Virus record (IMG/VR): IMGVR_UViG_3300027852_000039
Span: 11,761-75,760 of that record
Origin: a virus
Direction: 5' to 3' (one strand)
Length of the DNA: 64,000 nucleotides
Position numbers and translations under genes: made by a program. Below the pieces are notes generated by a model. It searched no databases and had not been told where the DNA came from. It saw only the letters and a list, made by a program, of their open reading frames with translations. Of the stretch, positions 2,449 to 39,895 are shown in pieces (within the stretch, counting starts at the first letter, position 1; each line of letters starts with the position of its first letter).

Positions 2449-2946
2449 ATGGACGGATCTGAACTAAACGATGTTTGCTTCTTCTGTGAAGTGGAGAAGA
2501 AGTCCCGAATCGATGGTCGGAAGAAGATCATTCACAAGGGGATCGACACGGAGAGACTGAAGTTTCCGAGCGGAGATCTCGAAAGAGCTTTCGCGAGGCT
2601 ATGGGAAAAACAGAACAAGCGTCGTCCAGGCTTGAACTACGGAATGGGGACACTTCAAGATCTCATGGTTCGACGAAGCGAGTCCGCTCCGTACGGTCAT
2701 TCGGTCCCGTATTGGATAACGCAGAGGGAAGCGACGATCGTCGCGACTATCATTCAGTGGCTCGGAACGAATTGTGGGTTCGCCTTTCTGTGTCAAGCGC
2801 TTGGAGATTGCGATATTCACGTCGAGAGCACGGAAGCTTATAACGAGAGACTCAAAAAGACCAACAGGAAGTTCCGAGAAGCAGAGGAGCATAAACGAAC
2901 GCGGACGCGACGAGTCGTCCGTCCAGGAGGAGCGAGCGATGAGTAA
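2449..2946 (+). CDS. hypothetical protein with C-terminal TRRVVRP motif
   Basis: GGGAG RBS; ATIIQWLGTNCGFAFL segment typical of small phage proteins. Confidence 0.8.
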   Translation: MDGSELNDVCFFCEVEKKSRIDGRKKIIHKGIDTERLKFPSGDLERAFARLWEKQNKRRPGLNYGMGTLQDLMVRRSESAPYGHSVPYWITQREATIVATIIQWLGTNCGFAFLCQALGDCDIHVESTEAYNERLKKTNRKFREAEEHKRTRTRRVVRPGGASDE

Positions 2947-3151
2947 GAAGGGAGAAGACACTCCGATAACGATGCAAGTGAAGGAGTCAGATCTTCGTAT
3001 GATTCAGAGTAAATGTAACGAGATCCTTCATCCATCTTGTGCGTGGAACAAAGATCCGCTGAAGACAGCGGAGCAAGCGATCGAGAACATGAAGGCGTCG
3101 GCAATAACGATCCTACAGACTGTAACGAGGATATTTCCCAGCCGTGCCTAG
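2939..3151 (+). CDS. hypothetical protein
   Basis: GGAGG RBS, overlap coupling. Confidence 0.65.
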   Translation: MSKKGEDTPITMQVKESDLRMIQSKCNEILHPSCAWNKDPLKTAEQAIENMKASAITILQTVTRIFPSRA

Positions 3152-3356
3152 CGAAACGTACATGAGGGTTTCAAGAATCGTGGGATGGAGCGAGAAAGAA
3201 ATCTATAATTATCCTCTGATCGATCGAGTTCGGAGCGAGAAGGATATGACGAAGTTTCTTCGATGGCATCGCTTCTTGAGACATCCGAGGACGGAGGAAG
3301 AGGAAGAGATCATCGCAATCATAAAAGAAAAGCTGGAGGATCTGTGGAATGACTAA
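3144..3356 (+). CDS. hypothetical protein
   Basis: Coupled ORF, GTG start. Confidence 0.6.
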   Translation: MPSETYMRVSRIVGWSEKEIYNYPLIDRVRSEKDMTKFLRWHRFLRHPRTEEEEEIIAIIKEKLEDLWND

Positions 3357-3633
3357 AAAGCGCAAAAAGGAAGAGAGAAGAGGAAAGCCCGTGTTCGCTA
3401 TTTCACAAGTGGATGACCTTCTGAAGGATGGATATGTTCAAGACTGTCCGTTCTCGATAAATGAGCGCCCTTGTGGAAACTGGTGTCCGTTCTTCGAGAA
3501 GCTCATGGAGCCGACGCGCGGGCTGATCATAATCTTCAATTGCAACGAGTCCATCAGTGGCACCTTCCAGGTCGATATTTCGGAAAGCGAGACTCCGAAG
3601 ATCGGGAAGGAAGCGGAGGAACCCAAACAGTGA
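3349..3633 (+). CDS. hypothetical Cys-cluster protein
   Basis: GGAGG RBS; CPF...CGNWCPFF motif. Confidence 0.65.
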   Translation: MTKKRKKEERRGKPVFAISQVDDLLKDGYVQDCPFSINERPCGNWCPFFEKLMEPTRGLIIIFNCNESISGTFQVDISESETPKIGKEAEEPKQ

Positions 3634-4208
3634 GGATTTGTGCAATTGATACGGATACGCGCTCCCCCGGTTACGCGATTTTCGACGGTGTCAAGTGTAT
3701 CGAACATGGAATCATCCCGCTCAAGAGAGGGAATCGAATCAGAGATGTCTTCGCAAAGTGGATGCTGGACCTTGTGTCTCGATCTGATATTCTGGTCATA
3801 GAGGATCAGTTCATCCCGAAGAAGAAACCGAATGTCGCGAAGTCGATGTTGTACCTTGCGGCGGCGAGAGGGAAGCTCGAACTCTTTTTCGAACTGGAAG
3901 GGAAGCGCGTCGTTCGCTTGATGGCGTTCAAGTGGCAGAGCGATGTTCTGTGGACGACCGCGCGGAAAAACAAACCCTGGATGAACCGGGAGGAAGCGGA
4001 GCGACGGACGAAGATGGTCGCGGAGGAGATCGTCGGAGGGGGGGTCACGAACGCGGACGTCGCGAGCGCGATCTGTATCGGGAGCTATTTCGCGAGACTC
4101 TATCAGGTCCACGGGGATCTCGCGCTCGATATAGCGACACAGTCGAAGAAGAAAACCAAGGTGAGCGCAACGAAAAGGGGTCAAACAAGAGGAGGAAAGA
4201 AAAGATGA
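3630..4208 (+). CDS. RuvC-like Holliday junction resolvase
   Basis: ICAIDTDTRSPGYAIF, LVIEDQF, W in MAFKWQ, NADVASAICIG; RNase H-fold motif order. Confidence 0.75.
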   Translation: MRICAIDTDTRSPGYAIFDGVKCIEHGIIPLKRGNRIRDVFAKWMLDLVSRSDILVIEDQFIPKKKPNVAKSMLYLAAARGKLELFFELEGKRVVRLMAFKWQSDVLWTTARKNKPWMNREEAERRTKMVAEEIVGGGVTNADVASAICIGSYFARLYQVHGDLALDIATQSKKKTKVSATKRGQTRGGKKR

Positions 4209-4651
4209 GTACGAAAACCCTCAGACAAGAATGGACATTCTTACACACGATTCTCGTGACGATGGCGGCGCTTATTAGCGTTCTGTTGCTTTTTCAGGGA
4301 CGCGTCTCGGGAGCGGATATCGAAGCGTGGGTTACTCCGGGGGAACCGTTCAATATTGGGTGGGCGGCGGCGAATCCTCCGGGAGATGGATACGAGGTCG
4401 AGCGATCGATGAACGGCGCAGCATGGGCGCTCCTTGGACAGACGACCGAGCAAGCTCAGTTCACGGAGATGCTCACCGGAGGAGCGGCGCAGTACAAGGT
4501 CAAAGCGTACAACCTGATTTCGTACACGGATCTCGACGGGACGCACGAGTCGAGACAGTACGGACCTTATTCAGAGATCTCTTTGACGTTCATCGCGGGA
4601 GAGGAACCCGAAGAGCCTGGACCTTGCGGAAGACCCGGACTTCTCCAATAG
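4205..4651 (+). CDS. exported fibronectin type III-like protein
   Basis: N-terminal hydrophobic signal-like segment; W..GYEVER..W..YKVKAYN..GPYSE FN3 pattern. Confidence 0.7.
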   Translation: MSTKTLRQEWTFLHTILVTMAALISVLLLFQGRVSGADIEAWVTPGEPFNIGWAAANPPGDGYEVERSMNGAAWALLGQTTEQAQFTEMLTGGAAQYKVKAYNLISYTDLDGTHESRQYGPYSEISLTFIAGEEPEEPGPCGRPGLLQ

Positions 4652-4663
4652 GAGGGAGATCGA

Positions 4664-5125
4664 ATGCCCGATCCCGGATCCATTCCTCCGTTCGAGATCT
4701 ACGTTGACGAGATGGCGATGTTCACGAGGAACGTTGTCCGGATCTACGTGAAGGTCAGAGCGAACTATTCCCTCGGGATGATCTCAAACCCGGACGTCAT
4801 TGAAGCGAACAAGGAACACCTTCTCCGACCGGACGGGAAGGGAGAGTTTGAAGTCGTCCCCTACGATCAGACGATGGTCAGAACGATCGACGAGAACGAT
4901 TACTTCCTGGACATCCCTCGTCCGTTATTCGAGCATCTTCTCGAAGCGATGCTGAAGTATGCGAAGAGGAACGGAATCGAACCCGATTCTCTTGCGGACC
5001 TGAAAGCGACACTGAGGGCGAAGGAAGAACATCTCGAAGACTTCCGGAATCTCGTTCAACAGAAGTTCAACATCACGCTTCCTCAACGTCGTGTCGTGAG
5101 GGGAGGTTCTGAGAATGGAAAGTGA
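4664..5125 (+). CDS. hypothetical protein with C-terminal QRRVVRG motif
   Basis: GGAGG RBS; KEEHLEDFRNLV helix. Confidence 0.75.
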   Translation: MPDPGSIPPFEIYVDEMAMFTRNVVRIYVKVRANYSLGMISNPDVIEANKEHLLRPDGKGEFEVVPYDQTMVRTIDENDYFLDIPRPLFEHLLEAMLKYAKRNGIEPDSLADLKATLRAKEEHLEDFRNLVQQKFNITLPQRRVVRGGSENGK

Positions 5126-5525
5126 TCGAGAATACATCGACATCGAGGTCGTCATGGACTGGAGCGATCCGGGTCCGGAGGGGATGTCTGTTCGTCCTGG
5201 AGCGCTGAAGGTCGACGAGTACATGAAGAACTCCGTCGTTCTTTCGAGCTTCGATGTGAGGACTCCTCCGGTCGGAAAGACGACGGAGATCGAGTTCGGT
5301 GAGGACGGGAAGTGTCGGATCAAGATGAAGATCGAACGCACGTACGCGGAAGCGATCCTCGAAGGCGCGATGTTTGCGAACCCTGGATTCATCGCGAAGA
5401 AGTGGACCGAGAAGGACGACGGGACGAAGGAGTACGAAGAGGGCGATCTTCTCTCCATTGGACTCGTCGCGAAACCTCCCGCTGAGAGTCAAGACAATGG
5501 CGAAGATCCCGGATCTAAAGGCTAA
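5115..5525 (+). CDS. catalytically inactive HK97 prohead-protease-like protein
   Basis: Aligns to 39900-41423 protease (EYMKNSVVLSSFD vs EFMKNPVLLQMHD; GFIAKKWTE vs GFIPNSWTE) but lacks His/Ser/Glu. Confidence 0.75.
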   Translation: MESDREYIDIEVVMDWSDPGPEGMSVRPGALKVDEYMKNSVVLSSFDVRTPPVGKTTEIEFGEDGKCRIKMKIERTYAEAILEGAMFANPGFIAKKWTEKDDGTKEYEEGDLLSIGLVAKPPAESQDNGEDPGSKG

Positions 5526-5880
5526 GGTTGACGTGTCGTTGTCCGAACAGTTGAAGATTTTTGTTGAGATAATGAGGGCGTTCGGGATCTCGACAGTGGA
5601 TGCGGCGAAGAACTTCGAAGAGTTCGGGAAAGCGATGAAGAAGATTCAGCCGAAGAACCCGGACGCGGTTGAGATGGATCTCCCCCCTTACGATGACGGT
5701 CTTTCGGATTTCTGCAAGAACACGGTCGCGATAGGAGAACAGGGAAAACCGCAACAGGTCACGAGCTGGAAGGCCACGATCGGACCGACCGGAAGATTTC
5801 CCGCGACCTTCCCGATGGAAGCATCCAAAGGAAGCGACGGATTGTACAACCCACAAACGGAAAAGAAGGAGGAGTCGAAG

Positions 5881-7122
5881 ATGAATGTTGAGTTTTCACG
5901 CGACGTACTCGAAGAAAAACTCTCATACGCGAGGGTCTTCACAGAAGCAAAGGGATCGATGCAACGACTCGACGCGGTCCTCTGTGAAGCGAAGAAGCTG
6001 GAGGGAGGAAGAACCGTCCTTCAGATCACAACGACAAACCTTGAGACGTCCTATGTCGGTCTAGTCGACTGCGATGTGAAGGAGGAGGGGACGGTCTGTC
6101 TCAACGCTGCGAAGCTTCTCGATATTGTGAAGACGTTGAACCGAGAAGCGGCGGCGTCTCTCACCGTGACGAAGAAGGATCCGGAGACGGTCCTCCTGAA
6201 GAGCGGTCGATCGAAGTTCAAGCTGAAACTGTTTCCTCCGGAGGAGTTCCCGAAGCTCTCGAAGGTCAAGTACACGGAGGGGATCCCGATCAACCCGTTC
6301 ACGCTGTCGAGAGCAATCCGGAAAGCGAAGAAGGGAACGTCCAAACAGTTACAGACGGGTCGGGTCGGACTGGAGTCTCTTCTCTTCCGGTTCGAGGGAA
6401 AAGACTTGAAGAAGCTCTTTCTCGTGAATGTCGGGACGGACGGTCATCGTTTGGCATACGTGAGGAACAAGATCCCTCTCGACGAATCTCAGATCGCTTC
6501 ACAAGAGCTTCCTCCCTGGATCAAGGGAGCGGAGGACGGAAAAGCGCGAGAGTACGTTCTTCCGATCTCAGGACTCCTTCAGCTTGAGAGGGTCGTCACG
6601 GACTATCTGTCGTCACTGAAGGAGGGAGACGAGGAGATTCCGGTCGAGGTTGCTCCGGATGAAGAAACCCGAGCGATTGCGTTCGCGATCAACGACTCGA
6701 TTCTTCATCTTCAATGTATCAACATGATGTATCCGGATTTCGAGGCGATCAGGAAGCACGAGTTCGGTGTGACGCTCCACGTGGATCTCCCGCAAATATC
6801 GGCGGCGCTGAAGCGGGTTGCGGTCCTCACAGATTCCAAGCATCGCGAGGTCACGCTGAAGGCGAGATCGACCGAGCTTGATATGAAACACGTCAGCGCG
6901 GAGATCGGAGAAGCTCAGGACACGGTCGCTTGTGAACTCATGGGGGAACCGTGGGAACTGAACTTCAACGTTACGTATCTCCGAGAAGGCGTCCAGGGGA
7001 TCGCGGAGGAGGAGGACGTCTTGATCGAGATCGCGGAGGGAGGAAAACCCGTCCGGATCCGGGGATCGAAAAATGCGTACGCGGACGAGTTCGAGTATAT
7101 CTTGATGCCGCTCAGGATATAG
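5881..7122 (+). CDS. dnaN: DNA polymerase III beta sliding clamp (in-frame upstream extension possible from ATG 5497)
   Basis: TTNLE, AAKLLDIVKTL, KSGRSKFKL, EEFPKL, GTDGHRLA, YPDFE, FNVTYL, YILMPLR; strong AAGGAGGAG RBS before 5881. Confidence 0.93.
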   Translation: MNVEFSRDVLEEKLSYARVFTEAKGSMQRLDAVLCEAKKLEGGRTVLQITTTNLETSYVGLVDCDVKEEGTVCLNAAKLLDIVKTLNREAAASLTVTKKDPETVLLKSGRSKFKLKLFPPEEFPKLSKVKYTEGIPINPFTLSRAIRKAKKGTSKQLQTGRVGLESLLFRFEGKDLKKLFLVNVGTDGHRLAYVRNKIPLDESQIASQELPPWIKGAEDGKAREYVLPISGLLQLERVVTDYLSSLKEGDEEIPVEVAPDEETRAIAFAINDSILHLQCINMMYPDFEAIRKHEFGVTLHVDLPQISAALKRVAVLTDSKHREVTLKARSTELDMKHVSAEIGEAQDTVACELMGEPWELNFNVTYLREGVQGIAEEEDVLIEIAEGGKPVRIRGSKNAYADEFEYILMPLRI

Positions 7123-7140
7123 CGGCGCGGAGGAACAGAG

Positions 7141-7575
7141 ATGTCTGAAGAGAAGAGGGAGAAGCGCTTCAAGGTCTGGAAGGTGTCCACGATCGCGGCG
7201 GGTCTGTTCTTTTGGGGGATCCTTATTCTGTGGGGATACTCGGTCATAAGAATGGCGATCGCGGTTACGCTCGAAGAAACGCTCTCTGAGAGGACGATCT
7301 TCTTTCTGTTGGGTCAAGGGTCTATCATCTCCTTGCTGGTCCTTTTTGTTGGGACTCCGTTCGCGTGGCGGCGCTTCAAGAAGTGGCGCGCGTGGAGAAG
7401 GCGAATCATCAAGGACGATCGCCCTCCCACGGTCCAGGAGATTCATGAAGCGATGCTTGACGCGATCGAACGTCTGACGGGCCGGCGACCGAACACGACC
7501 GAGATCCAGTTCCCCGGAACACCTCCGGAGTTCCTTCCGAAGTTCAATCCAGGACCGCCATATGGGAGTGCATAA
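7141..7575 (+). CDS. membrane protein (2 TM)
   Basis: Two hydrophobic segments; GGAGG RBS. Confidence 0.75.
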   Translation: MSEEKREKRFKVWKVSTIAAGLFFWGILILWGYSVIRMAIAVTLEETLSERTIFFLLGQGSIISLLVLFVGTPFAWRRFKKWRAWRRRIIKDDRPPTVQEIHEAMLDAIERLTGRRPNTTEIQFPGTPPEFLPKFNPGPPYGSA

Positions 7576-7589
7576 AGGAGGACCAGGAA

Positions 7590-7886
7590 ATGAAGAAGCA
7601 CGAATTGAAGACGGACCCGATCGTGTTCGCGGAGACGTGGTCGGGAAAGAAGAACTTCGAGGTCCGCGTGAACGATCGAGACTTCCAGGTCGGAGACGCT
7701 CTCGATCTTTGGGAGACGAGCTTTACGGGCGAGGAGATGAAGAAAGGGTCGTCTCTCATCTATACGGGGAGATACATCGAGGTCGAGGTCGAGTACATCC
7801 TTCACGGTCCGATCTATGGACTCGCGGAGGGATGGGTCATCATGGCGACACGGTTCATCACGAGAGGAACGAAGGATCGCAAATAG
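7590..7886 (+). CDS. DUF3850 / ASCH-PUA-like domain protein
   Basis: HELKT..F...SGKKNFEVRVNDRDFQVGD.L.LWE...YTGR. Confidence 0.88.
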   Translation: MKKHELKTDPIVFAETWSGKKNFEVRVNDRDFQVGDALDLWETSFTGEEMKKGSSLIYTGRYIEVEVEYILHGPIYGLAEGWVIMATRFITRGTKDRK

Positions 7887-7897
7887 GAGGATTGATC

Positions 7898-8161
7898 ATG
7901 GATCCTGAAACCTTCTGGACGAAGTTTCTTCCGGGAGTTCTTACAGTCCTCTTCCTGATTTGGGTTCTGTGGTACGTGGGGATCGACTTGCTAAGATGTT
8001 ACCTTCGACGGCGACGGTTGATCTGTCCGAAGTGTAAGCATCGAGGAAGCGATGGAGGAGGGAACCCCTATTGCGAAGCGCTCGACAGGAAGCTGTACGA
8101 GTACGTCGAGCGATGTTGTAGCTTCGAACGGGGACGAGGGAGGTACGGTCGGATATGCTAG
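7898..8161 (+). CDS. membrane-anchored Cys-rich protein
   Basis: N-terminal TM, CPKC..C..CC; GGAGG RBS. Confidence 0.65.
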   Translation: MDPETFWTKFLPGVLTVLFLIWVLWYVGIDLLRCYLRRRRLICPKCKHRGSDGGGNPYCEALDRKLYEYVERCCSFERGRGRYGRIC

Positions 8162-10276: not shown

Positions 10277-10291
10277 CGGAGGGGATTAAAC

Positions 10292-10507
10292 ATGGACACA
10301 AGGACCGGACACATTTACTCGCCGGAAGAGGTCGCGGAACTCAAGAAGAAGGGACTGGATACTTCTCACTTGAAACAGATGGAGCTTCCCCCTACGGACA
10401 AACAGATGAAGCGACGTCCCCCGAAGGTTGGACGGAATGAACTTTGTCCGTGCGGGAGCGGGAAGAAGTTCAAGAAATGCTGTCTCGATCTACAGAGGAG
10501 ACCGTAA
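10292..10507 (+). CDS. SEC-C motif protein
   Basis: [20 protein letters not shown]. Confidence 0.92.
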
Positions 10508-13979: not shown

Positions 13980-14713
13980 TAACAACGGATACGATCTACA
14001 CGATGAAGCATGAAGAGCTTGATCGATGGATTATCGAGAACGTCATGGAATGGAGAGCGCTCCCCTTCGACGCGCTTCAGGGACTCTTCGACCCGGAGGT
14101 ATACATCGAGTTCCCCGCGTGCGTGTTCAATCCGAGGACTGAGGTCTATGAGATGTTTCCGCATTCGAAGGCGAGACATCCGATCCCCTTCTCGCCGTCG
14201 ACGTTTCCGGAATCAGCGACGGCGGCACTCGACAAGATCTCCGATCGAGACGGATGGACCTACTCGATTCTTCGCGGATCCGCGAGCGAGCGACAGGCGA
14301 TCCTCCGCGCGCTGAAGTGGAAGCTCGCGACGGAGGACGAGGAGAGAGACGGAGAGGGGATCTTCGTGGTTCTCGCGAGGAAAGGTCTTTGCGTCCTTGG
14401 ACACGGTCCCCTCCTTCCACTTGCAGCGGCGCGCGCGGTCTGTCAGACCTTCGGGAAACCGGACGAGAGAGGTTTCGTCACGTCGAAGGAGATCCTCGAA
14501 CAGACGGGAGTCAAGAGCGTTCAGACCCTCATGAACTGGACGAAGCTCGGGATCCTTCCGTCTCCAAGAGTGACCGCTCAGAAGAACGGGCGCGGGTCGA
14601 TCGCATGGTTCCCGTACTTCGCGCTCGACCGCGTGTCGATGATCCTGGACCTAAAGAGGCAAGGGTACGGGATCCGGAGGATCAAGAAGATCCTGGACGT
14701 CGTCGGGCGCTGA
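13976..14713 (+). CDS. phage ABA-sandwich-like domain fused to MerR-like HTH
   Basis: ELDRWIIENVMEW...FSPST N-terminus; KEILEQTGVKSVQTLMNWTKLGILPSP...LKRQGYGIRRIK C-terminus. Confidence 0.65.
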   Translation: MITTDTIYTMKHEELDRWIIENVMEWRALPFDALQGLFDPEVYIEFPACVFNPRTEVYEMFPHSKARHPIPFSPSTFPESATAALDKISDRDGWTYSILRGSASERQAILRALKWKLATEDEERDGEGIFVVLARKGLCVLGHGPLLPLAAARAVCQTFGKPDERGFVTSKEILEQTGVKSVQTLMNWTKLGILPSPRVTAQKNGRGSIAWFPYFALDRVSMILDLKRQGYGIRRIKKILDVVGR

Positions 14714-16757: not shown

Positions 16758-18308
16758 ATGAGAACACAAGACTTGAACTTCACGCATTATCACAACGCGG
16801 GGTTTCCGTACATTTGGATCGAGACGTTCGAAGCGGACCGATTGATCCGAGACATGACCGCGATGATCCCCGAGGAGGAGGAGGTCTTTCAGTGGGACAT
16901 GGTCGACGGGATCTACGAAGCGCGGTCCGGGAAGCACATCGAGATCGAGAGGAGCGACGATGATGATGACAAAGACGAGGGACCGAAGGCGCAAGACATG
17001 ATCGATCTTCTCGTGTCAAGGGACGGACCCGCGATCATGTTCGCGGTGAACTTTCATTTCGTCCTGGACGAGAGGGTCAACCCGGAGGAGAGAGCGGAGA
17101 TCATTCAGAAGCTCGTCAACGCGCGAGACGAGCTTCAGAGAAAGGGGAACTGCCTCGTCGTTGTCTGTCCGGTCCTGGAGATTCCGCTCGAACTGTCCAA
17201 GATATTTCAGACGATCGAGTTCGATCTCCCCACGAAAGAAAAGCTCCGAGAGGTCTTCGAGCAGCAAGCCAAGAACGCGAAGCTCCCGGAATCGAGCAAT
17301 GACCACATGGAGAGCGTTCTCGAATCGGCGGTTGGTCTGACAGCACACGAAGCGGAAAACGCTGCGGCGCTCTCTATTGCGGCGATCGACGCTCTCGACC
17401 CGAAGATCATCTCTCATCTTCGCGCGGATATGATTCGTCAGAGCGCGACTCTTGAGGTTGGAAGGTTCGAGAAGACGCTCGATGACCTGAAGGGGATGGA
17501 CGCCGTCAAGGGATACATTCTCGATTCCCTGAAGAGCGACAAGTACAAGGGGATCCTCCTCATCGGGATGGCGGGAAGCGGGAAAACGGAACTCGCGAAG
17601 ACGATCGGAGCGCACGTCGAGCGGGACACGATCATCGCGGATATCAACAAGATCATGTCGGAAGGAAAGGCGCTTGTCGGTCAAGCGGAGACGAAAGCGT
17701 ATCAGTCGACGAAGATCATCGACTCGCAAGGAAGTCCGATCGTCATGTTCGACGAGATCGAGAAGGGACATCCGGGAGCGCGCGCGCACGAAGGAGACGG
17801 GGGATCGAGAAGCGGCGTCGGCGCGATTCTTCTGAAGTGGTTGTCGGACCGTCCTCGCGGAAAGGCGTACGTGATTGCGACGTGTAACGCAATCGACAAG
17901 CTCCCTCCGGCATGGAAGCGCGCGGGACGATGGGACGCGATCTTCTTCGTGGACTTCCCGGACAAGGAGACGCGGGACGAGATCCTCGATCATTACTGCA
18001 AGATTCACGACGTCGATAACTTCGACGCTCCCGAGATGGAAGGATGGACCGGAGCGGAGATCGAGCAAATGGTCCTCAACGCGTCGATGTTGAATCGGAC
18101 CCTGAAGGACGCGAGCATGTTCGTGACTCCGATCGTGGAAGTGGATCCCGAGGGAGTGAAGGAGCTTGAAGACTGGGCATTCCCGAAGGGGAGAGACAAG
18201 AAGGGGCGATGTGTCCTTGCGACCACGAGGAAGAATCCGAAGGACAAGAAGATCGATCCGTCCGGATCGACCAGGAGAATCAAGCGGGACGGCGAGAGCG
18301 TCAACTAG
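16758..18308 (+). CDS. Ycf46-like AAA+ ATPase
   Basis: Degenerate N-terminal AAA (IWIETFEADR, NFHFVL, IPLEL, FDLPT); Walker A GMAGSGKT, Walker B MFDEIEK, LPPAWKRAGRWDAIFFVDFP. Confidence 0.92.
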   Translation: MRTQDLNFTHYHNAGFPYIWIETFEADRLIRDMTAMIPEEEEVFQWDMVDGIYEARSGKHIEIERSDDDDDKDEGPKAQDMIDLLVSRDGPAIMFAVNFHFVLDERVNPEERAEIIQKLVNARDELQRKGNCLVVVCPVLEIPLELSKIFQTIEFDLPTKEKLREVFEQQAKNAKLPESSNDHMESVLESAVGLTAHEAENAAALSIAAIDALDPKIISHLRADMIRQSATLEVGRFEKTLDDLKGMDAVKGYILDSLKSDKYKGILLIGMAGSGKTELAKTIGAHVERDTIIADINKIMSEGKALVGQAETKAYQSTKIIDSQGSPIVMFDEIEKGHPGARAHEGDGGSRSGVGAILLKWLSDRPRGKAYVIATCNAIDKLPPAWKRAGRWDAIFFVDFPDKETRDEILDHYCKIHDVDNFDAPEMEGWTGAEIEQMVLNASMLNRTLKDASMFVTPIVEVDPEGVKELEDWAFPKGRDKKGRCVLATTRKNPKDKKIDPSGSTRRIKRDGESVN

Positions 18309-18356
18309 AAGTTGAACAGAGATCTCTAACGACTTAGGAAACAGGAGGAGAACATC

Positions 18357-18824
18357 ATGAGTCACGTCGACGTAATGGAAGTCGATTGTTCCGACCTGGA
18401 CGTGGTCGAGGCGGCGATCAAGCGGTTGCACCCTGGAGCGGAACTTCGGAGGAATCAGAAGACATACGCATGGTGGGGACACTCGATCGGAGACTATCCG
18501 ATCCCGGACGGGTTCACGGAGAAGGATCTCGGGAAGTGCGATCACGCGATCAGGATCCCCGGCTGCGCGTATGAGATCGGGATCGTCAAGCATCCGAAGA
18601 CCGGACAGTACGTCTTCATCGCGGACTTCTTTCAAACGGGAAGCTTGAAAAGGATTTGCGGCGCTCACGGAAATCTGTTGAAGCAAGCGTACACCGTCGA
18701 GAAGACGACGAAGGCGGCGAAGGCGAAGGGGTTCAAGGTGAAGGAGACGAAGCGGTCCAAGCTGCGGCGCTTCTTGAGCCGCGACAAACAATCGCTCGGG
18801 ATTCAACTAAAGATCACGAGGTAA
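18357..18824 (+). CDS. DUF1257 (Ycf35-like) protein
   Basis: MSHV...DLDVVEAAIKRL, YEIGIV, Y.F.AD.F, LKQAY; follows Ycf46-like AAA. Confidence 0.8.
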   Translation: MSHVDVMEVDCSDLDVVEAAIKRLHPGAELRRNQKTYAWWGHSIGDYPIPDGFTEKDLGKCDHAIRIPGCAYEIGIVKHPKTGQYVFIADFFQTGSLKRICGAHGNLLKQAYTVEKTTKAAKAKGFKVKETKRSKLRRFLSRDKQSLGIQLKITR

Positions 18825-18838
18825 CGGAGGTCAACATC

Positions 18839-19045
18839 ATGACGAGAAGACTCAAAAAAGGCGAAGAGATCATCGTGAATTGTTACGATGACGGTGAAGT
18901 CGAGGTCAAGGCGAAAGGGTTCAAGGGAGGATCCTGTTATGAGGCAACGCAATTCCTGGAGAAAGCTCTCGGACGCGTTAAGAAAACGAGGAAGACTTCC
19001 GATTACTTCAAACAGCGGAAAGAACGAGAGCGTGTCCGGGGATGA
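18839..19045 (+). CDS. DUF2997 protein
   Basis: I.V....DGEVEVKAKGFKGGSCYEATQFLEKALG..T.DYF. Confidence 0.85.
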   Translation: MTRRLKKGEEIIVNCYDDGEVEVKAKGFKGGSCYEATQFLEKALGRVKKTRKTSDYFKQRKERERVRG

Positions 19046-19240
19046 GATCACGATGTTCTGTCGAGACGATGGAAAGCTCGAAATCCCGTGGTCGACACCG
19101 GAATCTCGGGACGTCCTTTGTGGCGTCTGCGAGAAGTGCGCGGGATGGAGAACGGAGAGTCGTCCAAGAGATTGTGTGGTCGGGAATCCGTGGTGCGGGT
19201 AAATTTCAAGACAATGTGATGTGCAACGGAGGAGAGAATC

Positions 19241-20203
19241 ATGAAGACGAAGAAGAAAGAAAAGTCTGAAGAGAAGAAGATCCCCGAGGTCTTCGAGTGC
19301 GGTCGACTCCTGAAGCTCCGCTTCTCCCAATGGCAAGGGAGGAAGAAGGTCGATCAGGATAAAGTCGAGTGCAAACCAGGAGATGACGGGGCGGTCGCGA
19401 AAGAAGGGACGTGGGACGCGAGGAAGTCCCTTGTCGATCGAGACAAGGCGATCCTTCCAATCAACAGGGTAAAGGGACAAACCGTCGCAGAAGTCGAGAG
19501 AAGGATGGTTCCCGGATGGGATGACCGCGCAAGCTTCTTCATCGCGAAGAACGACATCCTGTCGACGGAAGCGTTACTGAAGGAAATGAGCGTCCTGTTT
19601 TATGAGAAGGTCGAGACGCTCCATAAGGAGATGGAGAATCTCAAAGCGGAAGCGCGAGTGAACCTCGGTCCACTCTACAATCCGGAAGACTATCCGGACG
19701 ACGTCCGGAATCACTTCAAGATGTCTTGGAACTGGTTGAAGGTCACTCCCGAGAACGGTGACGACGTCCTCCCTCCCGAGATGCAAGCGAACGAGATCGA
19801 CAAGTTCAAGGACATGATGGGAGAGTTCCGAGAGACGGCGATGTTCAATCTTCGTCTCGCGTTCAAGGAGGTCGTCGGGGAGATCGTCGAGGGTCTGACG
19901 TCCGGATCGAAGGACGGGAAGCGGAAGGTCATCCGTGGGGACTTCGTCGAGTCCAGGGTCGAGAAGATTCAACACCTGTCCTCCCTGAACGTCTTCCAGG
20001 ACGGCGATCTTGAGAAGGAGATCGAGAACCTTCAGCGGATCCTGAACGGCGTCGACATCGAGGATCTGAAGGAGGACGAGAAGTTCAAGAAGCGGGTCCG
20101 GACCGAGGTCGGGAAGATCTCGAAAGCGGTCCGTCCCTGGATGGACGACGCTCCGATTCGGAGGATCATCCGTCCGTCCAGGTTGAAGCACCTGGATAAG
20201 TAG
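19241..20203 (+). CDS. DUF3150-like protein with C-terminal IRRIIRP
   Basis: L.FSQWQGRKK, KSLVD, LGPLYNPEDYP, F...W, LNVFQDGDLEKEI; typical neighbour of this AAA module. Confidence 0.7.
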   Translation: MKTKKKEKSEEKKIPEVFECGRLLKLRFSQWQGRKKVDQDKVECKPGDDGAVAKEGTWDARKSLVDRDKAILPINRVKGQTVAEVERRMVPGWDDRASFFIAKNDILSTEALLKEMSVLFYEKVETLHKEMENLKAEARVNLGPLYNPEDYPDDVRNHFKMSWNWLKVTPENGDDVLPPEMQANEIDKFKDMMGEFRETAMFNLRLAFKEVVGEIVEGLTSGSKDGKRKVIRGDFVESRVEKIQHLSSLNVFQDGDLEKEIENLQRILNGVDIEDLKEDEKFKKRVRTEVGKISKAVRPWMDDAPIRRIIRPSRLKHLDK

Positions 20204-27974: not shown

Positions 27975-28312
27975 GACACCAACAGTACAATCTCCGGATA
28001 GAGGTCGAGGAGAAGCGGACCGTCATTCGGATGTCCAAGCTCGGGATGTTGGACATCCTGTCCGCGTTGAGCAATCTGAACCGGATGTCGACAGAGATCT
28101 CGGAGAAGGAGTGGAGGGAGAGGGACGAACCGTTCGTCGTGCGGTTTCTGAGTAAACCGCTCGGAAACATCGAATGGATACTCGATCCGAAATTCGAGCG
28201 CGAGATCCTGGAGCAACAGCGCGCGGAAATCGAGGAAAGAGTCCGCAAGACATGGGGAGCGGCAAATGAGACGAAGGTATTGTCCATGCGGAGCAAGGAT
28301 CGCGGAGGATGA
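27971..28312 (+). CDS. hypothetical protein
   Basis: ATGA overlap. Confidence 0.6.
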   Translation: MRHQQYNLRIEVEEKRTVIRMSKLGMLDILSALSNLNRMSTEISEKEWRERDEPFVVRFLSKPLGNIEWILDPKFEREILEQQRAEIEERVRKTWGAANETKVLSMRSKDRGG

Positions 28313-28772
28313 CAACCCGTGTCCTTTTTGTGGGAAGGAGCGGGAGACGAAGCCGTCGATGTTCACGACGCCGACGTTCTTTCAGGAGAAGGATCCCGTC
28401 AAACTTCTCACAGTGATCGAGGACTACATTGACAAAGGACCGTTCGACGATTCACACATCACGAAGTCGTTTCCGATGATCCCCTTCGTGGAGATCATCG
28501 GAAACGACATGGGGTTAGGGTGCGAGATAACGAAAGACCTGATCTCGAAGACGACGAGTAACTCGCCCATCATGTACTACAAAATGCTTCAGGCGCAAAA
28601 GGACAAGGAGATCGAGAAGCTCAAGGAAGAGATGCGCGGGGAGATCATCAAGGAGCTTGGAATCCCGAAGTCGATCCTGAACATGCGGACTGGACCGGCG
28701 AAGAAGGAGAAGCGAAGACCCACGGAGCGAACCCGGAGGATCATTCGTCCGGGGATGAAGAAGGAGGAATAA
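28266..28772 (+). CDS. Zn-ribbon protein with portal-stem-like segment and C-terminal TRRIIRP
   Basis: CPCG...CPFCG; QKDKEIEKLKEEMRGEIIKELGIP resembles portal QRDMDFGGLRKMAREEVCAILGVP. Confidence 0.7.
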   Translation: MRRRYCPCGARIAEDDNPCPFCGKERETKPSMFTTPTFFQEKDPVKLLTVIEDYIDKGPFDDSHITKSFPMIPFVEIIGNDMGLGCEITKDLISKTTSNSPIMYYKMLQAQKDKEIEKLKEEMRGEIIKELGIPKSILNMRTGPAKKEKRRPTERTRRIIRPGMKKEE

Positions 28773-33083: not shown

Positions 33084-33563
33084 ATGGCGACGACGAAACG
33101 CGAGCGACAAGAGGAGTTCCTTTTCCTGTATCCTCAATGCGGGTATTCGATCACTCGGACGATCCGGAAGATGAGTCCTCCTCTTCATCGGAATCAGGTC
33201 TATCGATGGAAGTCGGAGAAGGGCTTTAAGGAAAAACTCGCGGCGCTCGACATGGAGCAAGCGGACATCGCAAAGGATCAGATGTGGAGATGGTTCATCG
33301 TTCCCACGAAGGTCAAAGAGGACAAGGACGGAAACCCGGAGATAGATCCGGAGACGGGAGAGGAGAAGCGGATCCCCGCGAAACCGAATCTCACAGCGTT
33401 GATCTTCTGGATGAATATGACGGGAGACTTCGTCGGGTTCGACTTGGAGAAGGTACTCAAACAGGAAGAGCTTCAGCGGAAGAACAAGGAGCGGACGAAG
33501 AAGAAGGGTCGGAGGATCGTTCGTCCATCTGACGTGAAAGCGGTGAAGAAGGAGAAGTCATGA
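33084..33563 (+). CDS. terminase small subunit-like HTH protein with C-terminal GRRIVRP
   Basis: N-terminal HTH (RNQVYRWK...F), PNLTALIFW motif typical of TerS; heads the late region. Confidence 0.65.
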   Translation: MATTKRERQEEFLFLYPQCGYSITRTIRKMSPPLHRNQVYRWKSEKGFKEKLAALDMEQADIAKDQMWRWFIVPTKVKEDKDGNPEIDPETGEEKRIPAKPNLTALIFWMNMTGDFVGFDLEKVLKQEELQRKNKERTKKKGRRIVRPSDVKAVKKEKS

Positions 33564-33862: not shown

Positions 33863-33864
33863 TC

Positions 33865-34652: not shown

Positions 34653-35046
34653 GAAGAGCGCGGAGGAAGTCTTCATCAAGCTCCTGGCGCACGAGATGAA
34701 GGACACGTTTATGATGGATCTGTTCCAAGCACTTCAGTATCCCGACATGAAAGCGTCCAAGGGGAAAGGAAAGAAGGAGGAGGACGAAGACGCAAAAGCT
34801 CAGACCCCGGACAAGAACTTCCCCGCTGAGTTCTATCACATCCTGTCGCATGGGGTCGGAAGGAGACTCATAATCCCGAGGAAAAACACGATCGACTCGT
34901 TGATTTCAAAAGCGGAGATGTACGTGTTCATCCGGGACCAGAAGAACCCGGATGAGGCGTATCGCGCGGCGATGGCGAGATACAAGCTTTCCCGAGGAGA
35001 CATTGATCGGATCTTTAGGATGGTCCGGAGCATTGCGGAGAAATAG
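34627..35046 (+). CDS. Mor/C-like transcription activator
   Basis: GRRLIIPRK...MY...AMARYKLSRGDIDRIF. Confidence 0.5.
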   Translation: MSILIRPPEKSAEEVFIKLLAHEMKDTFMMDLFQALQYPDMKASKGKGKKEEDEDAKAQTPDKNFPAEFYHILSHGVGRRLIIPRKNTIDSLISKAEMYVFIRDQKNPDEAYRAAMARYKLSRGDIDRIFRMVRSIAEK

Positions 35047-35048
35047 AC

Positions 35049-35456
35049 ATGCCGATGTTAGATCTTCGACAGGTTCTCGCTCGCGTGAGCGAGGCACAGT
35101 TCAATCGGATCGAGCGCCTTATGTCGTTCGTGGAGGCGATCGAGAAGAAGGAGTTCGATCCGCTCATGGTCAAGAGTAACGGATACAAGGCGCACGAACT
35201 CGAACGAGGATACAAGATCGCATCGAAGGCGCTCGTCGATATTTGGAAGGCGACGTTGGCGCAACAAGTCTCCTCGATTTCGGAGGATGTCCCGGACGAT
35301 CTCGAAGCGCTGTACTACGAACTCTTGTCAATGTCCGAGAAAGATGTCGGTCGTCTTCAGGCGGCGGTCAAGCTCTTCCGGAGCGATGTGGACATCGAGC
35401 AATTCCTCGCGCTCGCGGAGAAGATCGAAGGAGGGAAGGATGGGAAAGAGCCTTGA
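35049..35456 (+). CDS. hypothetical helical protein
   Basis: ORF between regulators and TerL. Confidence 0.7.
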   Translation: MPMLDLRQVLARVSEAQFNRIERLMSFVEAIEKKEFDPLMVKSNGYKAHELERGYKIASKALVDIWKATLAQQVSSISEDVPDDLEALYYELLSMSEKDVGRLQAAVKLFRSDVDIEQFLALAEKIEGGKDGKEP

Positions 35457-35715
35457 CGAAAAGCTCCGCAACAAACCGAGGAAAGAGTACATAGCGTTCC
35501 TCTGTCCATTCCAGGAGATAGAGGACAGAATGAACTTTCATGCGGAACAAGGTTATTGGTATCTCGACGCGAAGGAGTCGCGGCAACCCTGGAGAGGAGG
35601 AAGCGAACCACAGTGGTTGATTATCATGAGGTATCGACCGAAGGAAGCAATGACTAAGCAAGGTGGGACGAAAACCAAACCCGTTATTCCCTACGGAGGA
35701 ACTCGTGAGCAATAG
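35440..35715 (+). CDS. DUF4177-like small protein
   Basis: EYI...IEDRMNFHAEQGYW; paralog of next gene. Confidence 0.6.
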   Translation: MGKSLDEKLRNKPRKEYIAFLCPFQEIEDRMNFHAEQGYWYLDAKESRQPWRGGSEPQWLIIMRYRPKEAMTKQGGTKTKPVIPYGGTREQ

Positions 35716-35956
35716 ACTGTACAACTACATCGCGAAGACGGTTCCGTTTGGAGGGCTTGAAGAGTTCCTGAATCATTTTGCTGAACATGGATACGTCCTC
35801 GTGAGCAATCATCCGGCGACGATCGATGTGTCTCATCGAGAAGCAGAAACCGAAGACGGGAAGGAAGGAGCTACCGGAACGCTCGTGTACGACAAGTTCA
35901 ATGTCGTCATGGCTCAGTACGTCGGACCGAGAGGTCCAGAAGTCCAGGGGAACTAA
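35705..35956 (+). CDS. DUF4177-like small protein
   Basis: NYI...LEEFLNHFAEHGYVLV. Confidence 0.6.
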   Translation: MSNRLYNYIAKTVPFGGLEEFLNHFAEHGYVLVSNHPATIDVSHREAETEDGKEGATGTLVYDKFNVVMAQYVGPRGPEVQGN

Positions 35957-35958
35957 TC

Positions 35959-37734
35959 TTGACGGACTCAATCCTCGAAGCACTTGACACCCTCCGAAGA
36001 ATCAAGTCTCCCAAAACAGCGAAACAGGTCCGCGAGATCGTTCCTATATCGGAGTGGCTTGAATCTCCGTACTACGTCGGGGAAGACGGTCTGAAGCTCT
36101 ACGACGTATGGAAGGACGAGCTTGCGAAGGTCTTCGACGAGGACAAGCCGAAATCCGAGTGGATCGTAACAGGATCCCTCGGGAGCGGGAAGTCGACGGC
36201 GGGGGAGTTCGCGGAAGTCCGGAAGGTCTACGAGCTTTCATGCTTTGAACCGATCCCGTATCTGTTCAATTTCATGAAATCGTCGACGATCATGTTCATC
36301 TATTTCTCGATCACTCTGGAGCAAGCTCAGAGAACGGGGTTCGGGGAGATCCGGAGAAGGGTTGACTCGATCCCGTACTTCACAAGGCGCTTCGGTAGAA
36401 ACCGAGACAAAGACAAAGCGCTCGAATTCAAGAACCTCTCGATCATCTACGGATCGGACGTCGGTCATCAAGTAGGAACCCATCTGATTAGCGCTCTACT
36501 GGACGAAGCGAACTTCATGGATCGGAAGTTCGATGCGATGAAAAAAAACTACTCAAAAGCTCAGGCGCTTTACAATAGCGTCCTGAACCGGAGACTGAAC
36601 CGCTTTGTGATTGACGGCGTCGATCATGGTCTGTCCGTTCTTGTGTCTTCAGCGGCAACGACGTCGAGCTTCACGGAAGAGCGCATCGAGGCGGCGAGGG
36701 ACAACTCGCGATCGCACGTCTCTGAAGTGACGGCGTTCAAGGTCAAGCGGAAAGAATACGACCTGAACGAGTTCCTCGTGTTCGTGGGGACGGAGCTTGT
36801 CGACCCGTGTCTGATCGACAACTATGGAGACTTGACCCGGACGTGCGAAGCGCTCGGGACCGAATGTCCGGAGCATGGATCCCTGAGACGGAGAGTCCGA
36901 AGGATCGAAGAGAAATACAGAGATCTCTTTCAATGGGTTCCCTCCGAACAGTTCCGGGACAGCTTCGAGAAGAACCTCCTCGATTCGATTCAAGACGTCC
37001 TCGGGATCTCGACGCGACCGCTCGGGAAACTCTTTCAGAGTCATTCGAAATACGCGAAGGTAATCGAGCTTGCGGACTATCTCGAAGCGAGACATCCGTT
37101 CACGAGCGAGGTCATCACGATCTCGACCGAGAACAACAAGATGATCCAGGACTTCATAATCGAGGAACGGATGGGTCCGAAGAACAAGGCGCGATGTATC
37201 CACGTCGATCAATCCAAGTCGAACGACTGGACGGGGATCGCAAGCGCATACGTGGACGGATACATCGACATTCAGGTCGGAGAGAAGAGTCAGAGGGTTG
37301 CGCTCGTCCGGGTTGAATTCGTGATCGTGATCGAACCTCCAAAGAAACCCGCAGAGATCCCGATCGAGCGAACACGTCTCTTCGTCAATTGGTTGAAAGA
37401 CAATAAGTACAGAGTCTCTCGTGTGACCTATGACGCATGGGGATCCGTGGAGTCGATTCAGATTCTTCAGCGTCAAGGGATCGCGGCGTCTCACTATTCC
37501 GTCGACAAGGACGACGAACCATACAAGCAACTCGTCACGATGATAAACCAGGGTCCGAGGATCCTCCTGTACGATCATCCGATTTTCAGGCGCGAGCTTT
37601 TCAACCTGGATCATGATCGGATGAAAGGGAAGGTCGACCATCCGGAGAAGGGATCCAAGGACGCAGCGGACGCGGTTTGTGGCGCGGTGAACAACGCTCT
37701 CCTCGCAATTCTCCCCGAACCGAGGATTCGGTAA
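35959..37734 (+). CDS. terminase large subunit
   Basis: Walker A GSLGSGKS, Walker B LLDEA, nuclease HVDQS...D, TYDAW, KVDHP..GSKDAADAV. Confidence 0.92.
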   Translation: MTDSILEALDTLRRIKSPKTAKQVREIVPISEWLESPYYVGEDGLKLYDVWKDELAKVFDEDKPKSEWIVTGSLGSGKSTAGEFAEVRKVYELSCFEPIPYLFNFMKSSTIMFIYFSITLEQAQRTGFGEIRRRVDSIPYFTRRFGRNRDKDKALEFKNLSIIYGSDVGHQVGTHLISALLDEANFMDRKFDAMKKNYSKAQALYNSVLNRRLNRFVIDGVDHGLSVLVSSAATTSSFTEERIEAARDNSRSHVSEVTAFKVKRKEYDLNEFLVFVGTELVDPCLIDNYGDLTRTCEALGTECPEHGSLRRRVRRIEEKYRDLFQWVPSEQFRDSFEKNLLDSIQDVLGISTRPLGKLFQSHSKYAKVIELADYLEARHPFTSEVITISTENNKMIQDFIIEERMGPKNKARCIHVDQSKSNDWTGIASAYVDGYIDIQVGEKSQRVALVRVEFVIVIEPPKKPAEIPIERTRLFVNWLKDNKYRVSRVTYDAWGSVESIQILQRQGIAASHYSVDKDDEPYKQLVTMINQGPRILLYDHPIFRRELFNLDHDRMKGKVDHPEKGSKDAADAVCGAVNNALLAILPEPRIR

Positions 37735-37816
37735 AGAATCCAAGGACTTGCCGAAGACATCTCTGAAACTCCCTGATCGCGCGCGCACTATATCTTGAAT
37801 AGGAGGCCCGTTTCCT

Positions 37817-39895
37817 ATGCAAGATATAGTGTCCGGTTCGAAGGCGCTCGCACCCTTCAATCCTGGAATCCCCCTGTCAAATTACCGAATCATCCCTCGA
37901 TCCCCTGTCGTCGCGGATCGTCTTCGGTCAGTCGCGAAAGCGCATAAGCTGACGGATCCAGGATGGGCGCAAGTGTTCGGGTCCGGGAAGTGGTCTATCT
38001 CGGAAGAGAACTTTTACAAACAACACCTTTGGGTCTACGCGTGCATAAATCGGATCTCGTCCAACGTCGGCGGCGTCCCCTACGAAGTGTACAAGGGGGA
38101 CACGGAAGTTCCGGTCGATGACGAGAAGGACGATTGCTTCCGACTCTTCCGAGATGTCAACCCGCACCTTTCCCGATACCAGCTATTCGAAGGAACTTCG
38201 ATCTTCCTCTATGGGTGGGGCGAAGCGTTTTGGGTTCTTGAGAAACTCGGGATGCCGACCGTCCAAGAGATTTGGATGTTCCGTCCGGATCACTTCAAGC
38301 ATGTCGTCAAAGACGGGAAGCTCATCGGATGGGTATACGACCGGGGAGTGAAACAGGTTCCGCTCGAACTCGACGAAGTGATTCATTTCCGACTGTTCAA
38401 TCCGTACGACGACATTCGCGGATTCAATCCGATGCAAGTCGCAAAGCTCACGGTCGAGACGGATTACTTCGCGCAAAAGTTCAACTGGAATTTCTTCAAA
38501 CAGGGTGCGACCCCTGGACTCTCTCTCACGACAGAGCAAGCACTCGACGACGATCAGTACGATCGCGTCATGGCGCAATGGGAACAGAAGTATTCCGGAC
38601 TGTCGAAGTCTCATTCGATCGCGATCCTCGATGGAGGACTCAAGTTCGACAAGATGCCGATCACGCAGAGGGACATGGACTTCGGAGGTCTTCGGAAGAT
38701 GGCGAGGGAGGAGGTCTGTGCAATCCTCGGAGTTCCTCCCGCTGAAGTCGGGATCCTCGAATACTCTCGCGCGTTCGCGAACACGAAGTCGCAAGACAAA
38801 GGGTTTTGGCAGAAGACCCTGATCCCTCGGATGCATTACTTCGAAGACATCCTGAACACGAATTTCTTTCCCGTCCATTTCCCGGAACATCAAGGGTACT
38901 TCGATCTGTCGGTTGTCGAAGCGCTTCAAGCGGATCTCCATGAGAAGGCGAAGACGGCGAAGACCTTTCATACGATGGGATATCCGATCAACGTTATCAA
39001 CGAGAGCATGGGTCTCGGGTTCCCGGAAATCAACGGGGGAGAGTTCGGATACCTTCCGCAAAACTACATCCCCGTTACGGCGGTGAAGGACGCGAAGAAG
39101 ACGGTCGACAAGGTGCGCGAGGAGATCGGAGAGAAGATCACGCGACGGATCGTTCGACCGAAAAGGAAGTACACGAAGGTCGGTTCTCTCAACACGCGGA
39201 AGATCGAAGCGATGAGAGTGCGGTACGCGGAAGAACTTCGCCTTGAGATCGAGAGCGCTAAGGAGCGGATCCGCGATCATCTGAAGGGTGTCTTCGGATA
39301 CGGAAAGAAGATGCGGACGAAAGGACCGAAACAGTACGCTCCCGAAGTCATCGAGGGAATCTTTTCCGATTGGGTCAAGGGATGGAAGGAGAAGGGTGCG
39401 GAGTACCTCAAGGAAGCGTTCGAGTTTGGTCTGTCTTCTGCAGAGGAACTCATGGGAGACTTGCTCACGAGCGAGACGTTCCGAGAGACGGTTCTCATTC
39501 AATTGACGTCGAAGAACGACGCGTTCGTCCAAAAGAGGATCGATTCAATCCTCGCACAACTCGCGAGCGAGCTTTCAGATATAGGATGGGAAGGCGAAGG
39601 GGCGGCGTCGGTCGCGGTTGATCTGTTGAACCGACACACCTTCCGCGCTGAAACCTTCGCGAATTTTGTTCTCTCTGTAGCGCACCATTCCTTCGTAGCG
39701 GAGGGGGCAGAGAGAAAGTATCAAGGCATCTGGCACACAACCGGAGACGGGAACGAGTGTCCCACTTGCGAGGGGATGCCTTCCGGAAATCCGTGGAAGC
39801 TCGGAGAGATGACGACGCTTCCGGGAGAGGACGTCATCTGTAACGGTCGGTGTCGATGCTATGTGGAGATCGTGAATCCAGAAGAAGGGGGTTAG
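37817..39895 (+). CDS. HK97-family portal protein fused to C-terminal MuF-like domain
   Basis: VYACINRIS, GEAFW, EVIHFR..NP, FFKQGATP, ILDGG, LGVPP; C-terminal W...D..CPTC...C.GRCRC. Confidence 0.95.
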   Translation: MQDIVSGSKALAPFNPGIPLSNYRIIPRSPVVADRLRSVAKAHKLTDPGWAQVFGSGKWSISEENFYKQHLWVYACINRISSNVGGVPYEVYKGDTEVPVDDEKDDCFRLFRDVNPHLSRYQLFEGTSIFLYGWGEAFWVLEKLGMPTVQEIWMFRPDHFKHVVKDGKLIGWVYDRGVKQVPLELDEVIHFRLFNPYDDIRGFNPMQVAKLTVETDYFAQKFNWNFFKQGATPGLSLTTEQALDDDQYDRVMAQWEQKYSGLSKSHSIAILDGGLKFDKMPITQRDMDFGGLRKMAREEVCAILGVPPAEVGILEYSRAFANTKSQDKGFWQKTLIPRMHYFEDILNTNFFPVHFPEHQGYFDLSVVEALQADLHEKAKTAKTFHTMGYPINVINESMGLGFPEINGGEFGYLPQNYIPVTAVKDAKKTVDKVREEIGEKITRRIVRPKRKYTKVGSLNTRKIEAMRVRYAEELRLEIESAKERIRDHLKGVFGYGKKMRTKGPKQYAPEVIEGIFSDWVKGWKEKGAEYLKEAFEFGLSSAEELMGDLLTSETFRETVLIQLTSKNDAFVQKRIDSILAQLASELSDIGWEGEGAASVAVDLLNRHTFRAETFANFVLSVAHHSFVAEGAERKYQGIWHTTGDGNECPTCEGMPSGNPWKLGEMTTLPGEDVICNGRCRCYVEIVNPEEGG

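Follow-up and report, generated by a model that had tools for sequence, protein, structure and literature searches.

The window analysed here is a 64,000-nucleotide stretch of viral DNA (IMG/VR record IMGVR_UViG_3300027852_000039) that corresponds to positions 11761-75760 of a contig of 75,760 bp. In the phage from which it derives (hereafter, the window phage), a short peptide, RR[IV][IV]RP, recurs as a tag in otherwise unrelated proteins, mostly a few residues before the stop codon. Judging from comparison with other phages, this tag appears to be one lineage's version of a terminal tail that is widespread among phages, and it probably serves as a conserved docking peptide for one common site, likely situated on a module built around a p97/Cdc48-like AAA+ ATPase.

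Recurrence and conservation of the tag

A six-frame scan detected six copies of RR[IV][IV]R[PG] in the window, and the whole 75.8-kb genome contains 8 (Table 1). All 8 copies were on the + strand and in frame within long open reading frames (ORFs), with none in the other frames, on the other strand or in intergenic regions. Six of the 8 were located 6-11 residues before the stop codon; the remaining two were found away from a C-terminus, in the linker that joins a portal domain to a MuF-like part in one protein and at residues 22-28 of a 353-aa (amino acid) protein. Retranslation reproduced the five exact copies and three near-variants reported in the initial annotation, together with their coordinates.

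The tag is real and far above chance. Residues were shuffled within the 116 proteins called by our own heuristic (a codon-bias and ribosome-binding-site model, which is a caveat on all protein-based counts), and a mean of 0.0155 copies of the exact motif was obtained versus 8 observed, in line with the earlier estimate of approximately 0.01 chance copies. The looser form RR[IV][IVK] was present 15 times (shuffle mean 2.7), and 10 times within 20 aa of a C-terminus (shuffle mean 0.37), confirming the C-terminal enrichment suspected at the outset. With 8 exact copies and 3-4 weaker ones, the carriers amount to about a tenth of the phage's proteins. Three loose RR[IV]-type matches are probably accidental rather than tags: one at 7396-7416 belongs to a membrane protein, a second at 14672-14692 falls within a MerR-type helix, and the third, beyond the window, is part of a tail protein.

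Table 1. Tag copies, ATPase module genes and clamp gene of the window phage (window coordinates unless marked as genome)
Feature	Position	Strand	Remarks
TRRVVRP	2905..2925	+	6 aa from C-terminus of 165-aa ORF 2449-2946, no family match
QRRVVRG	5084..5104	+	6 aa from C-terminus of 153-aa ORF 4664-5125
IRRIIRP	20156..20176	+	8 aa from C-terminus of DUF3150-like protein; first Arg is R307
TRRIIRP	28731..28751	+	6 aa from C-terminus of 168-aa ORF 28266-28772, weak zinc-ribbon match
GRRIVRP	33507..33527	+	11 aa from C-terminus of TerS-like 159-aa ORF 33084-33563
TRRIVRP	39140..39160	+	portal/MuF-like linker, residues 442-448 of 692, ORF 37817-39895
TRRIVRP	in ORF at genome 11037-11426 (outside window)	+	11 aa from end of 129-aa ORF
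TRRIIRP	in gene at genome 7572-8633 (outside window)	+	residues 22-28 of 353-aa protein
TRRIKRD (weaker form)	18270..18290	+	6 aa from C-terminus of AAA+ ATPase
QRRIVLE (weaker form)	887..907	+	4 aa from C-terminus of 99-aa ORF 620-919
LRRIKSP (possible N-terminal variant, uncertain)	35992..36012	+	residues 12-18 of large terminase
TRRVVH (weaker form)	outside window		173-aa protein
p97/Cdc48-like tandem AAA+ ATPase	16758..18308	+	degenerate first and active second domain, N domain absent (predicted); constant tail carrier
DUF1257 (Ycf35-like) partner	18357..18824	+	
DUF2997 partner	18839..19045	+	
DUF3150-like protein	19241..20203	+	second constant tail carrier
DnaN-type sliding clamp	5881..7122	+	rival candidate receptor; start ATG 5881 or ATG 5497

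By their annotated families, the carriers other than the ATPase and the DUF3150-like protein appear to be mostly DNA-handling or packaging proteins. The N-terminally tagged 353-aa protein is a Cas4-domain exonuclease (phrog_1990, 1.3e-19). The earlier labels held for the DUF3150-like protein and for the portal domain fused to a MuF-like part, and the TerS-like label stood as well, at the level of a lead. Several small early proteins are also tagged, and no carriers were found among the tail, lysis and glycosylation genes. Pfam and PHROGs searches gave no match for most of the small carriers, and PDB sequence searches with two carriers returned nothing significant.

Selection acts on the tag peptide, and it is purifying, because all copies share one reading frame, none is intergenic, their codons differ, and a portal homolog of 76% identity (L023) keeps TRRIVRP with 3 synonymous changes in its six codons. 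An opposite explanation would be that what is maintained is a nucleic acid signal (DNA or RNA) near the ends of genes, such as a small hairpin or a GGAGG of Shine-Dalgarno type, with the peptide as a by-product. The remark in the initial annotation that codons differ between copies is true, but five copies have AGGATCRTYCGTCC in common, and identical synonymous codons are more frequent among the copies than expected (p = 0.007; p = 0.019 when conditioned on the next base). GGAGG lies inside four copies, and two tails overlap the ribosome-binding site of the next gene, the codons just after the tags in 2905-2946 (P-G-G) and 5084-5125 (R-G-G) forming the GGAGG sites of overlapping downstream genes that start at 2939 and 5115. 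However, most of the codon excess is due to CGT at the third Arg; CGT is a rare Arg codon in this genome, yet it is the commonest one for Arg before Pro outside the motif (23/49), so that the excess largely follows the genome norm. Moreover, three copies preserve the peptide with quite different codons, two copies lie far from gene ends, and phages with unrelated DNA sequence still share the tail at the peptide level. A hairpin in the DNA motif was rejected, since pairing is not kept between copies. A nucleic acid signal with the peptide as by-product is therefore extremely improbable, and a small nucleotide-level effect on the tag codons may exist besides peptide selection.

Portal homologs at 78% and 76% identity retain the tag, and DAPTRRI[IV]RPS[RK]LKHL is retained in the two DUF3150-like orthologs, whose aligned identity is 68-72%; P0002, P0017 and P0018 are among the proteins that keep the tag. 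The concern raised at the outset, that the motif might not be kept in close orthologs, was not realised for these two carriers. In more distant portal relatives (approximately 34% identity) the strict motif was not found. Because the close portal and DUF3150-like orthologs keep the exact sequence and the distant portals are without it, RR[IV][IV]RP in its exact form appears to be restricted to a narrow lineage. Queries with TerL, the portal and the DUF3150-like protein retrieved no close relatives from viral and genome contig collections, and a metagenome scan yielded one, 2.5 kb long.

The ATPase module and its tails in other phages

The two constant tail carriers, the AAA+ ATPase and the DUF3150-like protein, belong to a four-gene module that spans 16758-20203 in the window. 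The ATPase matched PF00004 (5e-17, residues 266-399) and phrog_8638 (4e-50), and the DUF2997 protein matched PF11211 (3e-15). The DUF1257 protein scored 0.0017, which is below the cut-off, and 10 of 19 aligned family members matched PF06868 (down to 6e-16). The DUF3150-like protein gave no direct Pfam match; 13 of its 31 aligned relatives matched PF11348 (down to 1.5e-23), and its atlas feature score to DUF3150 clusters was 0.97. All four marks of the module were therefore present: a tandem AAA+ protein, adjoining DUF1257 and DUF2997 genes, a DUF3150 gene nearby, and a shared R-x-h-x-h end (h, hydrophobic). PADLOC returned generic AAA matches only.

AlphaFold2 models were confident for both carriers except at their ends. 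The ATPase model (mean pLDDT 92) matches the D1-D2 domains of p97/Cdc48 (Foldseek E 3e-19), with a first domain that appears degenerate and a separate N domain that appears to be absent, and residues 490-516 of its tail have low pLDDT. The DUF3150-like model (mean pLDDT 84) is helical, and only generic helical bundles without a specific fold match were obtained by Foldseek and VIA-align; here residues 301-320 have low pLDDT. Because these low-pLDDT ends occur on otherwise confident models, both tails look like linear motifs on flexible ends.

Homologs of the ATPase down to approximately 25% identity, from many phages, also end in a basic-hydrophobic stretch, [RK]-x-[IVL]-x-[IVLF], as in RRIVCTN, KRRVTL, GRKLDI, KRSLEV and GRQLDF, whereas five longer homologs of cellular or Ycf46 type are without the tail. 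Eighty viral loci around such ATPases were fetched and their ORFs clustered. The AAA+ protein was found in 70 of the 80 (BLAST cluster, window excluded), and DUF1257, DUF2997 and DUF3150-like proteins in 44, 39 and 39, respectively, by HMM (hidden Markov model). A second type of module was observed in about 15-20 loci, with a protein of approximately 280 aa ("family 3") and a small His-rich protein instead. In this type-B module (without DUF1257 and DUF2997; loci L042-L073, e.g. L139:9345-9686), the small protein adjoins the ATPase, ends in HSHDGG[KQ]TWH.GH and is probably metal-binding.

Within one phage, the endings of the ATPase and of the DUF3150 or family-3 protein are alike, while they differ between phages. 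The respective endings are KRSLEV and KRSLEF in L038, RKLEF and RSLDF in L039, RRRVAAP and RRRVMP in L034, TRRF and TRRF in L083, GRRIDA and GRVIDI in G003, and TRRIKRD and IRRIIRP in the window phage. Over 45 phages, tail pairs from the same phage scored 12.9 versus 10.3 for mismatched pairs, a value that was reached in 0 of 20,000 permutations (p < 5e-5). Tail matches of at least 22 bits were found in 5 of 1347 comparisons within a locus versus 2 of 6764 across loci. General RR[IV][IV]-type patterns showed no enrichment in the ORF tails of the 80 loci; the tail signal emerged only when each phage's own tail was used as the probe. Homologs in other phages carry a different shared tag, a possibility that the initial annotation had considered.

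When 1.84 billion representative proteins were searched with a profile, the DUF3150-like family comprised 12,479 representative clusters. Among its 149 top-ranked hits, 109 had R-x-h-x-h in the last 16 aa, versus 6 for an interior segment and 11 for shuffled tails, and the tail consensus of these hits was [DE]-[RKA]-P-x-R-[ARK]-I-[STRD]-[FL]-acidic. In a 31-member alignment, R307, the first Arg of the tag, was the sole invariant residue besides the start Met. The general form of the tail is P-x-R-x-[IVL]-x-[FLIV], with the Arg invariant. The description of the tag as phage-specific was accordingly not borne out in kind, a related tail being present on the AAA+ and DUF3150 proteins of dozens of other phages.

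Additional carriers were found in some of these phages. A 68.6-kb fragment (G001) has four copies of RPLRKIN[VI], at the ends of the ATPase and two small proteins and at the start of a 1139-aa polymerase (MKQRPLRKINV...). This polymerase gene (L120:3219-6635, - strand) is one ORF encoding UDG-like, 3'-5' exonuclease and PolA parts, into which an intein that has an HNH endonuclease is inserted. The complete 198-kb genome G003 has three carriers, namely the ATPase, the DUF3150-like protein and a DprA/YpsA-like protein, and the complete 87-kb genome G009 has three C-terminal copies; no N-terminal tag was found on the PolA of G009. The module with matching tails is also present in two cultured phages, the Mycobacterium phage Corndog and the Aeromonas phage HJ05. 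Chance matches to [LIVM]D[LFIV] near C-termini are so frequent in Corndog that extra carriers cannot be counted there.

Genome context

The final 140 bases of the contig repeat its first 140, and because of this terminal overlap the source phage genome is probably complete and circularly permuted. The likely genes all lie on one strand, with a strong purine skew, and GATC occurs 1021 times in the whole genome versus approximately 280 expected from base composition. TerL of the window phage reaches a best identity of only about 28% with cultured phages. Both Corndog (L139/L140) and the window phage have the AAA+ module and a clamp, and in both, glycosyl- and methyltransferase genes are located within the structural gene block (49051-56738 in the window). 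An S78 protease gene is found at 39900, in the head module. The 71-aa ORF 10292-10507 has a C-terminal end that appears to resemble the SEC-C metal-binding motif at the C-terminus of SecA.

Two starts are possible for the clamp gene. ATG 5881 is preceded by an AAGGAGG ribosome-binding site, and the ORF stays open for a further 355 nt upstream; a start at ATG 5497 would add an in-frame N-terminal extension of 128 aa without a family match. If the latter start is not used, 5526-5880 is a non-coding gap unusually long for this genome.

The docking site and alternative roles of the tag

The tag appears to lie in disordered ends or linkers of its carriers, and would probably bind one common site in the form of a short extended strand. 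As the tag changes on all carriers together between phages, this site should co-evolve with the tails and is probably encoded by the phage. The most likely candidate is the ATPase module itself, either the AAA+ ring or one of the small partners. In the window phage the tag would have spread to the exonuclease, the TerS-like protein, the portal-MuF linker, the zinc-ribbon protein and small early proteins, and would thereby recruit these carriers, mostly proteins of DNA handling or packaging, to a protein-remodelling ATPase as cofactors or clients, the clients being pulled off DNA or out of assemblies. That all carriers bind a single site, which site this is, and what follows docking are points that we infer. 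The proposal of a docking tag for one hub is thus strengthened by peptide selection, ortholog conservation, the link to a Ycf46-like AAA+ protein and the co-changing tails, while the hub itself stays a candidate.

Several observations weigh against docking on the module. The ATPase's own tail in the window phage is a weak variant, TRRIKRD, and were the ATPase ring the receptor, its own possession of the ligand would need explaining; neither tail docks in cis in the AlphaFold2 monomer models. At position +4, F or L is found in most phages and Arg in the window phage (Arg-Pro where most have [FL]-acidic), so that the local peptide may bind differently. The comparison of close relatives covers two carriers only (the portal and the DUF3150-like protein), and the portal tag is lost in a relative of 56% portal identity (P0003, on a 73.5-kb NCBI contig from a metagenome-assembled genome), which has SSRKVGTP there. 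The ATPase of the same contig ends in KRHIKKREVN; together with SSRKVGTP in the portal, this means that the relative's version of the tag may differ.

A different receptor would be a sliding clamp on which the carriers ride, either the DnaN-type clamp that the phage encodes or the beta clamp of the host. There is precedent in T4 (PMC2988020) and in Mu (PMC12867686), and in T4 the clamp epitopes of gp43, gp33 and gp55 bind gp45 and are interchangeable between carriers (PMC2988020). Such clamp motifs resemble the tag in being short peptides on flexible ends of unrelated proteins of one phage that address one hub, and they too occupy C-termini, N-termini and linkers. The two modelled tails of the window phage are disordered, and carriers are largely DNA-handling, including the Cas4-type exonuclease and the TerS-like protein here and, in relatives, the G001 polymerase (at its N-terminus) and the DprA/YpsA-like protein of G003. 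The window phage encodes a clamp, G001 encodes a DnaN-like clamp besides its tagged polymerase, and in Corndog the clamp gene lies within approximately 6 kb of the AAA+ gene. Many tails of other phages also resemble QL[SD]LF or the T4 LDFL (PQLDLI, GRQLDF and ARQLDLA at the very C-terminus), some reading QLDL[FI]. On the other hand, the window clamp has canonical pocket residues (TDGHRLA and C-terminal LMPLRI). The Arg-rich RR[IV][IV]RP, aligned via the invariant Arg, is without the hydrophobic pair that usually occupies positions 4-5 and does not conform to the QL[SD]LF/QLxLxL consensus, with only a loose [TQ]-x-x-h-h fitting. Instead of a polymerase, an unfoldase-type ATPase and a DUF3150 protein serve as the constant carriers, and the N-terminus of the G009 PolA is untagged. 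Strong differences between the tails of different phages fit poorly with a conserved host clamp pocket. A recognisable clamp gene is missing from the majority of complete genomes in which the module is present: seven (95-100% complete) gave no match to the beta-clamp C-domain, and five of these none to the gp45 C-domain either. Because the tails diverge fast and these seven near-complete genomes have no beta-clamp domain, a phage-encoded receptor on the module is favoured; clamp binding is considered unlikely, but it is the strongest of the alternatives and a serious one.

Tethers and degradation signals offer another comparison, as the tail LRVVK of SspB tethers ClpX and RRKKAI is the signal of MuA. 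Both resemble the local form of the tag; AAA+ unfoldases typically engage proteins at disordered terminal tails, and the ATPase is p97/Cdc48-like. The tag could then be a degron that leads to unfolding and degradation by a protease, or a site cut by the prohead protease, with release of MuF from the portal as one example. However, the conserved module contains no protease gene, the ATPase and its constant partner are themselves tagged, and trimming of 6-11 residues would do little to most carriers. The S78 protease is located in the head module, whereas most carriers are non-structural. A degron or cleavage signal is thus quite improbable, and nothing was found in support of two earlier suggestions, a protease site that releases MuF from the portal and a compartment-targeting signal. 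A Tat signal (N-terminal S/T-R-R-x-F-L-K and a hydrophobic stretch) was rejected, since the tag sits mainly at C-termini and no copy precedes a hydrophobic segment.

Docking on the ATPase module may be compared with known terminal motifs of AAA+ machines. The HbYX tails of PAN, Rpt and Cdc48 and the GQYL ending of mycobacterial Mpa and Bpa are proteasome-docking peptides. There, as in the phages, an AAA+ ring and an unrelated helical protein share an ending; in the proteasome systems this ending plugs both into the same pockets of a partner, as the tag would do. The phage ATPase has a Cdc48-like fold. Unlike these endings, the tag has no penultimate Tyr, lies 6-11 aa from the end or, in some carriers, at the N-terminus or internally, and is present on far more proteins, and no proteasome or other cylinder is known in these phages. 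The p97 motifs VBM, VIM and SHP box and the Vps4 motif MIM recruit clients and cofactors by binding N-terminal domains. They are likewise short linear motifs on flexible tails, some of them Arg-rich, that serve classic-clade AAA+ machines, but the phage ATPase has no N-terminal domain and itself carries the motif. The Ycf46/Ycf35/DUF2997 set of cyanobacteria and plastids contains the same three families that adjoin in the window, while the phage version additionally comes with DUF3150 and the shared tail. Full-text literature searches on the tag peptide, DUF3150, DUF1257/DUF2997 and Ycf46 with phage returned nothing on the function of the module or on the tail, in agreement with the statement in the initial annotation that no such system had been described.

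As a more far-reaching proposal, which we put forward tentatively and consider possible though rather doubtful, the phage would have a private tag-and-machine system. In this system the Cdc48-like unfoldase, with the DUF3150, DUF1257 and DUF2997 proteins as cofactors, would recognise the tag on DNA-bound or ring-forming proteins of the phage and load them onto, or strip them from, DNA or assemblies. Its targets would be the exonuclease, TerS, terminase and portal in the window phage, and the polymerase and the DprA-like protein elsewhere. If true, it would be a ubiquitin-free counterpart of the extraction of Ku from DNA by p97.

The module is very widespread, with approximately 12,500 representative clusters of DUF3150-like proteins and with cultured members in Corndog and HJ05. 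Used as bait, the tag provides an experimental handle on the receptor, and the list of carriers indicates the processes that the machine touches. Because each phage lineage has its own version of the tag, orthogonal docking pairs for engineering could be obtained. A role would also follow for the orphan families DUF3150, DUF1257/Ycf35 and DUF2997 and for the Ycf46-like ATPases.

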